The notes beneath the pieces were generated by a model. It made no database searches and had not been told where the DNA came from. It saw only the letters and a program-made list of their open reading frames with translations. The translations under genes were made by a program, and so were the position numbers. From a virus: a stretch of 64,000 nucleotides of DNA. Shown here piece by piece: positions 15,337 to 31,745 of the stretch (the first letter of the stretch is position 1; each line of letters begins with the position of its first letter). The stretch is from IMG/VR virus record IMGVR_UViG_3300030419_005367, positions 1 to 64,000 of that record. The stretch is one strand, 5' to 3'.

Positions 15337-15345
15337 ACTATTTAT
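15337..15345 (+). promoter_or_regulatory. putative late promoter ACTATTTAT
   Basis: Intergenic motif preceding the structured leader and fibre 2. Confidence 0.6.
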
Positions 15346-15352
15346 CTTTAGT

Positions 15353-15416
15353 CGGGGGGCATTCAGTTTAATCCAAGAATAACATGTTTATTCCGGGTTA
15401 GATTGGTGCGCCTCCG
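15353..15416 (+). promoter_or_regulatory. long 5'-leader RNA hairpin
   Basis: About 27 bp imperfect stem with five G-U pairs, starting 7 nt after the late promoter motif. Confidence 0.65.
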
Positions 15417-15447
15417 CACATAATTAGACAAAAAGGAGAAATTAATT

Positions 15448-25000: not shown

Positions 25001-25309
25001 ATGGAATTACTTTATTTTATTCTATGTGCCTATGGTATAACTTCAATTATTGTCTATAGTCATATTGTTAAAGCTCCACGAGAATATCTTTCATCGAAAT
25101 CTGATTGGGTGTGTGAATTGCTTCATTGCTCAATGTGCACTGGCTTTTGGGTTGGAGTATTTCTATGTGGCGTAAACGGATTCACTGAACTATTTACATT
25201 TGACTATAATTTCATCAACTTTTTGCTTTTGGGATCGCTTAGTGCTGGCACTTCATACCTATTAAATGCTGTTGTTGATGATGATGGTATCAAAATTGGG
25301 AGTAAATAA
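25001..25309 (+). CDS. small membrane protein with CxxC (DUF1360-like)
   Basis: Start reassigned to MELLYF (SD GAGG); three hydrophobic segments; LLHCSMCTGFWVG motif. Confidence 0.6.
   Translation: MELLYFILCAYGITSIIVYSHIVKAPREYLSSKSDWVCELLHCSMCTGFWVGVFLCGVNGFTELFTFDYNFINFLLLGSLSAGTSYLLNAVVDDDGIKIGSK
25189..25196 (+). promoter_or_regulatory. putative intragenic late promoter ACTATTTA
   Basis: Exact motif about 190 nt upstream of the prohead protease start. Confidence 0.4.
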
Positions 25310-25310
25310 A

Positions 25311-25379
25311 ATGAACACTGACGCCTTCACACTAAAATGGATGTTGCAACCAGTTAGACGTTGCTGCAAAGGATCGTGA
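25311..25379 (+). CDS. 22 aa micropeptide MNTDAFTLKWMLQPVRRCCKGS
   Basis: Translated by hand; SD GGGAG 8 nt upstream; exactly fills the gap between two genes. Confidence 0.45.
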   Translation: MNTDAFTLKWMLQPVRRCCKGS

Positions 25380-25381
25380 CT

Positions 25382-25993
25382 ATGAGCAAGTATTTATTAA
25401 GAGAATTCTATGAGCTTTGCCCGAACGGCACTTGCGAAGATCTTCTTACAGAAGACGACAAGCGAATGATCCGTGAAAACGGAGCAATGTTCCTTACTGG
25501 TGTTATGCAAAGAGCAGATGCTCAAAATGGAAATGGGCGTGTTTACCCAAAGGGAATCTTGGAGAGAGAGATTGAGAATTATAAGAAGATCGTAAAGGAA
25601 CGCCGAGCACTTGGCGAGCTTGATCATCCAGACGATTCCGTCGTTAACCTTAAAAATGCCTCACATATGATCACAGATGTTTGGTGGGATGGCAATGACG
25701 TTATGGGAAAAGCACAAATTCTCAACACTCCTTCTGGCCAAGTCCTTAAAGAACTTGTGAATGCCGGCGTAAAGCTAGGCATTTCATCTCGCGGCCTAGG
25801 CTCAGTTAGCGAACAAATGGGCAAAACAATCGTTGAAGACGATTTTCAGCTTATTTGCTTTGATTTTGTATCTGAGCCCTCAACCTCTGGTGCATTTATG
25901 ATGACCGAGGGTAAAGACATTAACTTAGACAAGGTATTTACAAAAGCCGATAAGATTAATCGCGCTTTAAACGAAATTCTAAAAGGAAAATAA
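25382..25993 (+). CDS. prohead core protease (T4 gp21-like)
   Basis: NGNGRVYP, ALGELDHP, ILNTPSG, LGISSRGLGS and DFVSEPS motifs; start reassigned to MSKYLLRE. Confidence 0.95.
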   Translation: MSKYLLREFYELCPNGTCEDLLTEDDKRMIRENGAMFLTGVMQRADAQNGNGRVYPKGILEREIENYKKIVKERRALGELDHPDDSVVNLKNASHMITDVWWDGNDVMGKAQILNTPSGQVLKELVNAGVKLGISSRGLGSVSEQMGKTIVEDDFQLICFDFVSEPSTSGAFMMTEGKDINLDKVFTKADKINRALNEILKGK

Positions 25994-26097: not shown

Positions 26098-26529
26098 ATG
26101 AAAAAAGCGGATTTAAAAAAAGTTTTAAAACCACTTGTTAAAGAATGTATTCAAGAAGCCCTCCTCGAAGAGGGTTTATTGTCTAACGTTATTTCTGAAG
26201 TCGTAAAAGGTCTGAGCGTTCAACCTCTTGTTGAACAGGTCCAGCCAAAACAATCTCAAGCTGAAATTACAGAACAAAAGATTATCGACGAGGAAACACA
26301 AAAAAGAAAACAAAAGATTAATGAAACTAGAAAGCAAATGTTAGATGCAATCGGAAAGGATTCTTACAATGGGATCGATCTTTTCGAAGGCACAGATCCG
26401 ATGAGAGAGTCAAGCAACCCACACAGCCCACTCGCAAATACCGACCCCAGAGATTCTGGAGTCGACATTTCCAGTCTGATGGGCAATAAAAAAGTGTGGA
26501 AAGCCTTAGCAGGAAATTCAAATGAGTAA
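26098..26529 (+). CDS. hypothetical head-module protein
   Basis: 143 aa; starts MKKADLKKVLKPLVKECIQEALLEE. Confidence 0.65.
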   Translation: MKKADLKKVLKPLVKECIQEALLEEGLLSNVISEVVKGLSVQPLVEQVQPKQSQAEITEQKIIDEETQKRKQKINETRKQMLDAIGKDSYNGIDLFEGTDPMRESSNPHSPLANTDPRDSGVDISSLMGNKKVWKALAGNSNE

Positions 26530-26743
26530 TAAACACCCAATTAATGTAGAAACAAAGCCGAAACCAAATGAGTCTATTGAGCGTACTTTAAAGAGATTCT
26601 CAAGAAAGGTAAAAAAAGAGGGAATTTTGGATCAACTCCGCGAACGTTCTCGTTTTGAAAAACCCTCTGACAAGAAGAGACGCCTAGCTAAGAAAAGAAA
26701 GGCAGTATTAAGAAGACTAAAACAGAAAGAGCAAACTAGTTAA
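26522..26743 (+). CDS. rpsU: phage-encoded 30S ribosomal protein bS21
   Basis: NESIERTLKRFSRKVKKEGILDQLRERSRFEKPSDKKRR matches the bS21 pattern (E..E..L.RF.R.....G...E.R....EKP). Confidence 0.88.
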   Translation: MSNKHPINVETKPKPNESIERTLKRFSRKVKKEGILDQLRERSRFEKPSDKKRRLAKKRKAVLRRLKQKEQTS

Positions 26744-28836: not shown

Positions 28837-30687
28837 ATGTCTGTACTTGATAAATTAACAGAAGGCATTGTTAATCGCGATCTCCAAAAGGAAGGTGCTG
28901 CTCTACTGAATAAGTGGGAGAAGACCGGTCTTTTGGAAGGAATTACCAGTGACTCACAAAAAAATGGAATGGCTGTCCTGCTTGAGAACCAAGCAAAAGA
29001 GCTACTTAGAGAGGCTTCCTCGATGGCAGCCGGTGATGTTGAAGGCTTCGCAGCCGTAGCATTCCCGCTTGTTCGTCGTGTATTCGGTGGTCTTGTTGCT
29101 AACGATCTTGTATCCGTTCAGCCAATGAGCCTTCCATCCGGTCTCATCTTCTTCCTCGACTTCACTTACGAAGGCCGCGAGGGTATTGTACAAGATCCGG
29201 GCGATTCCGTCTACGGCGGTAACGTGGTTGCATCCCAGTTGACTGGTGGTGTTACTAACATCACAGAAGAGGGTGGTGGTTTTTATAACCTCGCAAATGC
29301 TTATTCGCATGCTACCTCTTCGATCGCTCTCGACGAGTCGACCGCGACCGCAATCGGTTCAGCAGAAGAAAATCACGTTCACGATGAGCTTACCGACGCC
29401 GGCCCATTCACCACTGCTGGTGGTGTAACAATTAGCTCCCTTACGGCAGCACAAAAGAAGGTTCTTCGTTTTGATCCTGACATTCTTGCTGCTTCTGCTG
29501 GTACTGTTTCTCACCTTTTGGTAAGACTTTCCACTGCTAATATGAACACCATTAATCTCGATAATCTTAGCACTATCGATCTTAGTGACTCCGCTGGTAA
29601 TACACTTTACGGTATTTCCACTGCAAGAGTTGTTAGAAGACTAACACACCTTGGTTATTATGACACTAGTGGTAATAGTATCGTAGCTGGCTCCAAGACT
29701 AACTACATTAGTTTGTATGTTCAGTCCGACGCCGACAGTGCTACTCATGAGCTTGCAGGTTCTGACGGCACAGATGCACTTGAACTTCACGTTCCTATTA
29801 AGGACGCTATGGCTTCTTCGGACAATGTTGGTTCTGTGGTTGGTGAAGCTTCTTGGGCTCTTGAAGAGCCACAAGACGGAACTGGCAACGCTGGTAATGC
29901 AACTGGCAAAAACGAGATTCCTGAGATCGACATCAAGGTTGACTCTGTTTCCGTTACTGCAATGACAAAGAAGCTCAAGGCCAAATGGACCCCAGAGCTT
30001 GGTCAAGACCTTAATGCTTACCACAACCTCGACGCTGAGGTTGAGCTTACTGGTATTCTCTCTGAGCAGATCGCTCTTGAGATCGACCGTGAGATCCTCA
30101 ATGACCTCATCACTGGTGCAACTGCTGGTACTCGTTACTGGTCTCGCGCCCCGGGCCTTTTCGTAGACTCAACTGGTACTGAGCTTGGTGCTGCTTCGGC
30201 TGCTCCAGACTTTACTGGTACAGTATCCGAGTGGTACGAGACTCTCGTTGAGACAATCAACGATGTTTCTGCTCAGATTCACCGCAAAACTCTTCGCGGT
30301 GGTGCCAACTTCATCGTCGTTGGGCCTGAAGTTGCCAACATTCTTGAGTTCACAAACGGTTTCCGTGCAGACGTAACTGGTGATGTTGACCGTGGTACGG
30401 TTGGCGCAGTTAAGTCTGGTGCACTTAGCAAGAAGTGGGATGTATACGTAGATCCTTACTTCCCTCGCAACGTAGTACTCGTTGGTCGTAAAGGTGGTTC
30501 GTTCCTTGAGAGCGGATTTGTTTACGCTCCATACGTACCGCTGCAGGTCACACCTACTATCTTCGGTACCGAAGACTTCGTTCCTCGCAAGGGAGTGATG
30601 ACTCGTTATGCCAAGAAGATGGTACGTCCTGATATGTACGGTCTAGTAGTCGTTCGCGGCTTGCTTGGTGAGGAAGGCGCTAGCTAA
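28837..30687 (+). CDS. major capsid protein (T4 gp23-like)
   Basis: LLENQ, PLVRR, VSVQPMSLPSGLIF, KLKAKWTPELGQDL, EIDREI, YAPYVP and GVMTRY motifs. Confidence 0.97.
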   Translation: MSVLDKLTEGIVNRDLQKEGAALLNKWEKTGLLEGITSDSQKNGMAVLLENQAKELLREASSMAAGDVEGFAAVAFPLVRRVFGGLVANDLVSVQPMSLPSGLIFFLDFTYEGREGIVQDPGDSVYGGNVVASQLTGGVTNITEEGGGFYNLANAYSHATSSIALDESTATAIGSAEENHVHDELTDAGPFTTAGGVTISSLTAAQKKVLRFDPDILAASAGTVSHLLVRLSTANMNTINLDNLSTIDLSDSAGNTLYGISTARVVRRLTHLGYYDTSGNSIVAGSKTNYISLYVQSDADSATHELAGSDGTDALELHVPIKDAMASSDNVGSVVGEASWALEEPQDGTGNAGNATGKNEIPEIDIKVDSVSVTAMTKKLKAKWTPELGQDLNAYHNLDAEVELTGILSEQIALEIDREILNDLITGATAGTRYWSRAPGLFVDSTGTELGAASAAPDFTGTVSEWYETLVETINDVSAQIHRKTLRGGANFIVVGPEVANILEFTNGFRADVTGDVDRGTVGAVKSGALSKKWDVYVDPYFPRNVVLVGRKGGSFLESGFVYAPYVPLQVTPTIFGTEDFVPRKGVMTRYAKKMVRPDMYGLVVVRGLLGEEGAS

Positions 30688-30720
30688 TAGCTAACGACTT
30701 ATAGCCAATAGTCAATTTAC

Positions 30721-30754
30721 GCCCCGCCTTGGGAAACTAAGGCGGGGCTTTTTT
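30721..30754 (+). terminator. Rho-independent terminator after the capsid gene
   Basis: GCCCCGCCTTGG / GAAA / CTAAGGCGGGGC followed by TTTTTT. Confidence 0.9.
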
Positions 30755-30785
30755 GTTTTATGTGACTCTTTTGTTGATGATGGAA

Positions 30786-30794
30786 ACTATTTAT
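30786..30794 (+). promoter_or_regulatory. putative late promoter ACTATTTAT
   Basis: Motif between the capsid terminator and the structured RNA. Confidence 0.6.
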
Positions 30795-30800
30795 AGGGAC

Positions 30801-30892
30801 AACTTGAGTCAAATCTCCTTGGACGGGGCCGCTGTCCTTTGAAGAAGTTTTGACCGAAGCGGCTGGTCATTATTTCGTGATTGAATCAAGTT
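30801..30892 (+). ncRNA. candidate structured RNA: three-way junction with complementary (kissing) loops
   Basis: P1 30801-30812/30881-30892; P2 30821-30824/30834-30837; P3 30844-30856/30864-30876; loops GCCGCT and AGCGGC are exact complements. Confidence 0.6.
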
Positions 30893-30923
30893 ATTGCAAT
30901 AACCATATAAGGAGAAATAAATT

Positions 30924-31745
30924 ATGGGAAAAAGAATAGGACGCAGAAGATTGGACAGTCTTTTGGAAAGAAATTATGACTCAACTGATGAGTGGGGGTT
31001 TGTCCGACCTCCAATGGTACCCGGACTACAACGCAATTTAAAAATTGTTGCTCTGGGCCAAATGCACGGTTGGGCACTTGAGGATTTGACGGATCTACCT
31101 CAAGAAGACGCAACGACGTCTATTTGGAGCGCTGACAAAGACTCAGGTACCGTCGTTTGTCTTGCTGGTGACGCTGACTTTACTGATGGCGCTATTACGA
31201 TGACTACTGGTGGTTCCTCGGGTAATCAGGTTGGTGTTATGTGCAGAGGTACACAATTTAACTGCTCTAGCACTAAAAAATGGTGGATTGAAACTGTGAT
31301 TAAGTGCGCAGATCATGATGCTAGTGAATTTTTCTTTGGTCTTCACGAGAGAGACGTTGATACAGACAGCTTTCATGTCGAAGCGGCAGCAGCCGGCAAA
31401 GATAGAATTGGCTTTGTAAAAGCGACACACAATGCCGATGCGGTTACTTATGCGTGCTCATCTAATGGTGATGGCACAATTTCAACAGCTTTAGATACGG
31501 CCATATCATATGACGCCGATAACGATGTTCTTGCAATGGGTATCCATTGGGACGGGGCTCAGTTGAAGTTTTATTCCGCGATTTCTGCGACCGGAACCGA
31601 TCCGGGTGCAATGAAGCTTAACACTACCGTCACAGCAAACATTCCTACCGACTCTAATCTGAGTCTTATGTTAATGTTTGAGAACGGCGGTGGTGCTGAT
31701 GAATCATTCGGCGTAAACTTTATTCGCGGCGCGTATGAGGTTTAA
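30924..31745 (+). CDS. hypothetical virion protein (beta-sandwich/lectin-like, possible head decoration)
   Basis: Basic N-terminus MGKRIGRRRL; beta-rich body; follows the MCP; SD AAGGAG. Confidence 0.5.
   Translation: MGKRIGRRRLDSLLERNYDSTDEWGFVRPPMVPGLQRNLKIVALGQMHGWALEDLTDLPQEDATTSIWSADKDSGTVVCLAGDADFTDGAITMTTGGSSGNQVGVMCRGTQFNCSSTKKWWIETVIKCADHDASEFFFGLHERDVDTDSFHVEAAAAGKDRIGFVKATHNADAVTYACSSNGDGTISTALDTAISYDADNDVLAMGIHWDGAQLKFYSAISATGTDPGAMKLNTTVTANIPTDSNLSLMLMFENGGGADESFGVNFIRGAYEV

Follow-up and report, generated by a model that had tools for sequence, protein, structure and literature searches.

A covarying three-way-junction RNA with complementary loops follows the capsid gene in uncultured marine T4-like phages

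Covariation among homologues shows that an RNA of ~105 nucleotides (nt), encoded just after the gene for the gp23-type major capsid protein (MCP), folds into a conserved three-way junction in which the two hairpin loops form a Watson–Crick helix of 6–7 base pairs (bp). Judged by the loci in which it occurs, the element belongs to a clade of uncultured marine T4-like phages. Our main reading, which we hold at a probability of about 0.5, is that it represents an undescribed family of 5'-leader RNAs, carried by the late mRNA of the gene downstream of gp23, and that it controls translation of this gene in cis. The element was studied in a 64,000-nt stretch of viral DNA (positions 1 to 64,000 of IMG/VR record IMGVR_UViG_3300030419_005367; hereafter, the window), whose source record is 73.7 kb long with an estimated completeness of 41%. 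It had been proposed in a preliminary description made from these letters alone, and all of the letters and coordinates given there proved correct on re-reading of the window.

Results

Organization of the locus

The gp23-type MCP gene occupies positions 28837–30687 (PF07068, E = 1.6e-74). It is followed by a terminator, a promoter-like box, the RNA element and a gene for a protein of 273 amino acids (aa), and the RNA itself consists of three helices (P1, P2 and P3), their joining segments (J) and two loops (L2 and L3), upstream of a Shine–Dalgarno (SD) sequence:

30721–30758, plus strand: intrinsic terminator of the gp23 (MCP) gene, a 12-bp GC-rich stem (30721–30748) followed by a T run
30786–30793, plus strand: late-promoter-like box ACTATTTA, recognized by its enrichment, placement and conservation
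30801–30812, plus strand: 5' strand of P1, made up of P1a AACUUGA (30801–07), a G/A mismatch (30808) and P1b UCAA (30809–12)
30813–30820, plus strand: J1/2, AUCUCCUU, in which UCUCCUU is the exact complement of the SD AAGGAGA (anti-SD)
30821–30837, plus strand: P2 hairpin, GGAC/GUCC (30821–24/30834–37), with the 9-nt loop L2 GGGGCCGCU (30825–33), bases 30827–30833 of which pair with L3
30838–30843, plus strand: J2/3, UUUGAA, conserved as YUUGAA or UAGAAA (alignments A4 and A7)
30844–30876, plus strand: P3 hairpin (strands 30844–55/30865–76), with a loose lower part, an upper stem of 7–8 bp and the 9-nt loop L3 GAAGCGGCU, bases 30858–30864 of which pair with L2
30827–30864, plus strand: loop–loop (kissing or pseudoknot) helix between the complementary segments GCCGCT (30828–33) and AGCGGC (30858–63), with pairs G30827·U30864, G30828–C30863, C30829–G30862, C30830–G30861, G30831–C30860 and C30832–G30859, and probably also U30833–A30858
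30877–30892, plus strand: J3/1 (GUGA) and the 3' strand of P1 (UUGA-A-UCAAGUU, 30881–30892), from the covariation alignment
30890–30903, plus strand: perfect 14-nt palindrome GTTATTGCAATAAC, the 5' half of which overlaps the 3' strand of P1
30909–30926, plus strand: SD AAGGAGA (core AAGGAG, 30909–14), an 8-nt spacer and ATG (30924)
30924–31745, plus strand: downstream gene (273 aa), with the basic N-terminus MGKRIGRRRL and a ConA-like lectin beta-sandwich body

The MCP terminator was among the features claimed earlier and is borne out by the stem listed here; a GC hairpin with a T run is also found upstream of the RNA element in nearly all relatives. In Rfam, PyrG_leader gave 39 bits against a cut-off of 65 on the region 30677–30759. 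Because this weak match sits on the MCP terminator and falls below the cut-off, PyrG_leader was rejected for the element, and the resemblance is most likely plain terminator likeness. Two further candidates were rejected: the P3 hairpin with its T-rich tail is not conserved as a terminator among relatives, and a small open reading frame (ORF) within the element would have a stop-free frame in only 6–7 of 65 copies.

The box ACTATTTA occurs 11 times in the window, always on the plus strand, versus 2.75 occurrences expected, and seven of the 11 sites lie 19–39 nt upstream of an ORF. With this enrichment and spacing it behaves as a promoter box, and the box or a one-base variant of it is present in relatives. 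These counts support the late-promoter context suggested earlier, and ACTATTTA is presumably a late promoter, from which transcription would start ~6 nt 3' of the box, at or just before P1. The leader of the gene at 30924 spans ~130 nt, compared with 19–39 nt for most other genes with this box. Elsewhere in the window, boxes at 15337–15447 and 25189–25381 are separated from the next ORF of at least 60 aa by gaps of 103 nt and 185 nt, respectively, which may hold further leaders or small ORFs. Metatranscriptome contigs from Logan reach the conserved 3' end of the MCP gene only.

The head module of the window also contains a gene for the ribosomal protein bS21 (26522–26743, plus strand; PF01165, E = 1.3e-15), which adjoins the prohead protease (25382–25993; PF03420). 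A link between bS21 and the element was rejected, as all five of the clade genomes examined carry bS21, whether or not they have the element.

Relatives and distribution

Relatives of the MCP are abundant in viral contigs. A blastn search with the intergenic region located the element in 8 of 80 MCP-relative loci, and the MCPs of these eight loci share 58–70% identity with that of the window. A covariance model (R1) was built from the copies found by blastn. Of three pattern scans, two used the loops as anchors and the third used the 3' strand of P1 together with the palindrome; the first loose loop patterns returned mostly chance matches, and the covariance model served as the filter. Among the matches listed, 65 distinct homologues scored 61–119 bits with R1, while everything else scored 21 bits or less.

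Wherever enough upstream DNA exists, the element starts 73–148 nt downstream of the MCP stop codon. Each of five records searched over its whole length holds a single copy, including a complete 195-kb genome with terminal repeats. A strict pattern identified at least 120 further loci in marine metagenomes, Tara scaffolds among them, and yielded 0 matches in the 185,579 species genomes of GTDB. When 1 kb was compared by blastn with 50,697 phage records there was no match, and the element was found in none of the cultured phages in this set. The nearest isolates by MCP are Flavobacterium phage immuto (46%), Rhodothermus RM378 and Microcystis Mel-JY01.

Covariation of the helices and loops

Folded alone, this stretch of the window has a minimum free energy (MFE) of −32.5 kcal/mol (z = −1.57), and 17 of 200 shuffled sequences fold as well. 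This unremarkable stability could be due to chance alone, and the case for the structure therefore rests on comparison. In alignment A7 (65 sequences), 90.5% of cells are in standard pairs, versus 77.1% in shuffles and 31–46% when partners were slid, and none of 500 shuffles reached the observed pairing. The covariation score was 0.393 versus 0.164, and 19 pairs displayed changes on both sides. Such changes were seen at nine of the 11 pairs of P3 and at all four pairs of P1b; three of the five pairs of P2 carry compensatory changes, and P1a is 93% paired, varying mostly through G–U. RNAalifold recovered the same P1, P2 and P3 from an alignment made by MAFFT independently of the structure, so these helices are no artifact of model fitting.

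The loop–loop helix is 100% paired in the 65 distinct sequences, with the qualification that the loop-anchored patterns fixed the other loop letters and left R and Y free. Two of its positions change on both sides without mismatch or wobble: one is A–U in 54 sequences and G–C in 11, and the other is C–G in 61 and G–C in 4, the latter variant having been found by the pattern that ignores the loops. On the MCP tree, the loop state changes at least nine times. Near-identical subtypes of the element occur on distant MCP branches, and some of these changes therefore represent exchange of the cassette; counted by element subtype, the G–C state is found in at least 4–5 separate lineages. Arm lengths are invariant across copies, and J1/2, J2/3 and J3/1 are conserved. 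Judging from one lineage (L200/L233), in which the letters are UCC:GGA, P1b may possibly be extended by pairing of UUC with GA(W) of J3/1. Across the post-MCP spacers collected from relatives, then, the element is conserved and its helices and loop–loop pairs covary, which bears out both the three-way junction and the complementary loops that the preliminary description had read from a single sequence.

Pairing within or between molecules

The observed covariation appears to fit loop pairing within one molecule and between molecules equally well. Very unequal arms had previously been taken as a hint of intermolecular pairing; the arms do differ, but the argument is weaker than claimed because the lower part of P3 is poorly paired, which leaves effective arms of ~5 bp (P2) and ~7 bp (upper P3). 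In a self-assembling RNA, L2 would pair with L3 of another molecule and the palindrome would add a duplex, giving dimers or rings, and such assembly would make translation depend on the concentration of the mRNA or would serve assembly of the head. The 9 nt of each loop comprise two purines on the 5' side and then seven bases that pair, as in free-standing kissing complexes, of which the HIV-1 DIS is an example. With a J2/3 of 6 nt, a coaxial stack of P2, the kissing helix and P3 (~19 bp) would be hard to close, although a loose lower P3 could bend. The palindrome provides a second self-complementary element, kept true in all but one copy, and the whole lies in the head module. On the other side, 6-bp loop–loop helices do form in cis in the lysine riboswitch, T4-type packaging is not known to need RNA, and the strong SD and ORF directly 3' of the RNA, together with the anti-SD, fit an mRNA leader. 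A precedent exists in ROOL, where a covarying kissing loop, taken for a tertiary contact on the strength of covariation, turned out to be quaternary, with pairing between molecules (10.1101/2024.12.08.627333). Taking these points together, we consider self-assembly unlikely.

An anti-SD in the junction and a competing palindrome

One feature of J1/2 was absent from the earlier account. In 61 of 63 copies, J1/2 holds 6–9 contiguous nt complementary to the copy's own SD, and it is the best partner of the SD anywhere in the element. Deviant forms of J1/2 occur with a fitting SD (UCCUCCU with AGGAGGA, and UUCUUCGG with UUGAGGAG), and one copy (L038, with UUCGCCC) has a poor anti-SD. Pairing of J1/2 with its own SD averaged −9.48 kcal/mol versus −9.29 kcal/mol after permutation, a value reached in 59 of 5000 permutations with relatedness uncontrolled. 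As J1/2 and the SD hardly vary at all, they covary weakly with each other. The ribosome in any case constrains the SD, and the tertiary structure of the junction could by itself account for the conservation of UCUCC.

Constrained folding in nested models only gave mean energies of −32.4 kcal/mol with P1 closed versus −32.0 kcal/mol with the SD sequestered, and the two folds differ by 3 kcal/mol or less in 52 of 63 copies, again with nested folding. The unconstrained MFE structure is the SD-sequestered fold, with J1/2 paired to the SD, in the window and in several relatives. P1 and the SD–anti-SD helix are predicted to exclude each other in nested models, and could coexist in a pseudoknot.

The palindrome adds a second competition. 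Its 5' half (GUUAU) is the end of the 3' strand of P1, and the letters found at the 5' end of P1 (AUAAC) recur in its 3' half in many relatives. The palindrome hairpin thus competes with P1, an arrangement typical of expression platforms. Palindromes of relatives read TTATTGCAATAA, GTTATCGATAAC, GGTTACGTAACC or GGTTAACGTTAACC. Self-complementarity runs through the center in 62 of 63 copies and five sequence forms, with the centers UUGCAA, UCGA, ACGU and AACGUU. A self-complementary center is more than a plain hairpin needs, and would be compatible with binding of a dimeric protein to the DNA or with an RNA–RNA duplex.

Conservation might accordingly be sought at the level of DNA, with the palindrome as an operator for a dimeric protein and the block as a homology arm for swapping of the cassette. 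A palindrome that stays true in five forms would suit such an operator, and the scatter of element subtypes over the MCP tree, with swapped gene bodies, would suit a homology arm. DNA-level conservation does not, however, yield strand-specific compensatory changes with G–U in three helices and a pseudoknot, and we give it very little credence for the element as a whole; for the palindrome alone it could hold.

The downstream gene and its cassette slot

The AF2 model of the 273-aa protein has a pLDDT of 85.6, and its best Foldseek matches are legume lectins, ERGIC-53 and glucanases, at TM scores of about 0.45–0.5. The protein has no match to a Pfam or PHROG family, and the protein of one relative has a weak match to Laminin_G_3. 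Across relatives, the gene products keep their N-terminus (MGNRRLGRKRL-like) and otherwise have unrelated bodies of 166–373 aa. Used as a query in viral contigs, the downstream protein found no locus; nor did tblastn detect a match to it at the MCP-relative loci, the bodies of the genes there being unrelated.

In relatives that lack the element, the slot is filled by other small genes with related N-termini (MSKLGR..., MGTKRVG...), and the leaders of these genes are shorter or different, with simple 5' hairpins at the same place. Further relatives pass straight from the MCP gene to the gene of ~430 aa (MAIPTLTP...) that follows in the window. By comparison of loci L002–L081, the interval between the MCP gene and the ~430-aa gene is a variable cassette slot in which unrelated bodies share a short basic N-terminus (MGNRRLG, MGTKRVG or MSKLGR), and the scatter of element subtypes over the MCP tree suggests exchange of the whole cassette. 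We infer that genes in the slot encode exchangeable accessory or decoration proteins of the virion for which the N-terminus serves as an anchor, and the 273-aa product is probably one of them.

A second, unrelated long leader (~110–126 nt) was observed in the same post-MCP slot of four loci (L013, L002, L064 and L047). It lies between a ACTATTTA-type box and the ATG of MGTKRVG/MGSKRL genes, has several hairpins and in these loci shares a 3' block, GGGACAUGAUUAUAAAUGG...CCAAGGGAGGGUUU. This leader may be another structured family serving the same kind of gene.

The simple hairpins of relatives without the element bring up a passive role, in which the RNA, through its 5'-terminal P1 and compact fold, would be a 5' stabilizer that protects the late mRNA from 5'-end-dependent decay without any switching or, in a variant, a processing module that marks an RNase cleavage site separating this mRNA from read-through MCP transcripts. 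Such transcripts are likely, given the terminator upstream of the element, and P1 lies at the predicted 5' end. A hairpin would nevertheless suffice for this purpose: a covarying kissing helix, conserved junctions and an anti-SD of 7–9 nt exceed the need, and we regard a passive module as quite improbable.

Proposed mechanism

In our preferred reading, the RNA would act in cis on the initiation of translation by adopting one of two states. In the first, P1 and P1b would be formed, UCUCCUU would be held in the closed junction and the SD would be free. In the second, UCUCCUU would pair with the SD AAGGAGA ~90 nt downstream, and, because the anti-SD abuts P2, the resulting SD–anti-SD helix would be stacked on P2, with the ribosome-binding site concealed. 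The palindrome, by competing for the 3' strand of P1, would favor the SD-sequestered state. The balance between the two states would set the yield of the variable lectin-like virion protein relative to the capsid protein, and might be shifted by a candidate protein (the gene's own product or another phage factor), by a small ligand, or by the concentration of Mg2+ or of the RNA itself. Autogenous control, or control by a phage factor, is plausible by analogy with T4 operators. A cis-regulatory switch and a multimerizing RNA appear to be the two leading functional readings, and the former gains from the anti-SD and from the competition of the palindrome with P1.

A true riboswitch would be a special case of cis control with a ligand as the trigger: the loop-braced junction would bind a small molecule or ion that reports the state of the host, stabilizing P1 and thereby freeing or hiding the SD. 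The architecture is suggestive, comprising an aptamer-like three-way junction with braced arms, conserved J1/2, J2/3 and J3/1, invariant arm lengths and an SD/anti-SD expression platform. The genomic setting is less so, as the element is present in a single copy per genome and always before one kind of gene, which encodes a lectin-like virion protein and has neither a metabolic nor a transport function; moreover, no riboswitch in Rfam matches it. We accordingly view a ligand-triggered form of the switch as doubtful.

Comparison with known RNA families

A search of Rfam 15 with the window and two divergent copies found nothing on the element at E ≤ 10, as the preliminary description had predicted, and our literature search found no description of the motif. 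A 2023 bulk survey of IMG/VR gives 8,495 unnamed RNA candidates (PMC10690425), and the motif may already be in that catalog without a description.

Two families come closest in outline. With the purine riboswitch (RF00167), the element shares a three-way junction with an L2–L3 contact, the position of a 5' leader and a P1 coupled to an expression platform. Purine riboswitches, however, have two loop pairs within base quadruples and a specificity pyrimidine in J3/1, whereas the loops of the element form a Watson–Crick helix of 6–7 bp, its junctions (AUCUCCUU, UUUGAA and GUGA) lack the consensus letters of the purine pocket, and its gene encodes a virion protein. With the phi29 prohead RNA (pRNA; RF00044), it shares a link to head genes and the form of a phage RNA of ~100–120 nt in which the 5' and 3' ends make a helix and the two loops around a three-way junction are complementary to each other. 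The pRNA is a free-standing RNA of phi29-like podoviruses that is required by the packaging motor, and its loops pair between molecules over 4 bp; the phage studied here, in contrast, has a gp23-type MCP, and an SD and ORF follow directly after the RNA. Neither RF00167 (even at E ≤ 10) nor RF00044 gave a covariance model match, and the element resembles both families in outline only, consistent with the earlier remark that it matches neither.

The L2–L3 contact of the lysine riboswitch and the kissing loops of cobalamin riboswitches are loop–loop helices of similar length to that of the element (~6 bp), formed in cis inside a leader and needed for the regulatory fold of RNAs with known ligands. 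There is no homology to the element, which differs in junction order, size and sequence. ROOL and GOLLD are likewise phage-borne structured RNAs of unknown function, but they measure 500–800+ nt, form large cages and are not mRNA leaders, in contrast to an RNA of ~105 nt placed directly before an SD.

Self-cleaving ribozymes deserve mention because a small junction-plus-pseudoknot RNA in a phage is a common setting for them, and the conserved junction letters of the element would be in keeping with a new ribozyme that processes the MCP read-through transcript. Hammerhead, twister, twister-sister, pistol and hatchet models gave no match even at E ≤ 10, the CUGAUGA core is absent, and we saw no sign of a cleavage site. 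A ribozyme is a very improbable explanation.

The T4 operators (the gene 32 leader pseudoknot, RegA and gp43) share with the proposed role a cis control of translation in a T4-type phage through structure at or near the ribosome-binding site, and their autogenous repression by the encoded protein is a plausible analogue. They are small and overlap the ribosome-binding site, and none is a three-way junction with kissing loops. Leaders of gp32 are also discussed in the IMG/VR survey (PMC10690425). As with SD-sequestering leaders in general, the element contains an internal anti-SD to its own SD (6–9 nt in the 61 copies noted above). We class it as a new family among such structured leaders with an SD toggle, a general kind already known, and think it unlikely to be the rarer case of a small phage RNA that self-assembles.

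Discussion

We know of very few structured regulatory RNAs in the late structural operons of T4-type phages, and of none with this architecture. With at least 120 metagenome loci, Tara among them, the element is common in the ocean, and support for its secondary structure and for the kissing helix is exceptionally strong. Because it precedes, and may control, a hypervariable lectin-like gene that is apparently exchanged as a cassette, it offers a compact test case for how the dose of an accessory capsid protein is tuned.

The element also bears on a current question in RNA biology, namely whether covarying loop–loop contacts are tertiary or quaternary. Were self-assembly true, dimers or closed rings would form late in infection, and the element would be the smallest natural phage RNA known to multimerize apart from those of the phi29 group, and T4-like phages would have their first example; it would either make the translation of a capsid accessory protein depend on mRNA concentration or act in head assembly. 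If a ligand or protein partner were found, the element would represent a new class of riboswitch or operator.
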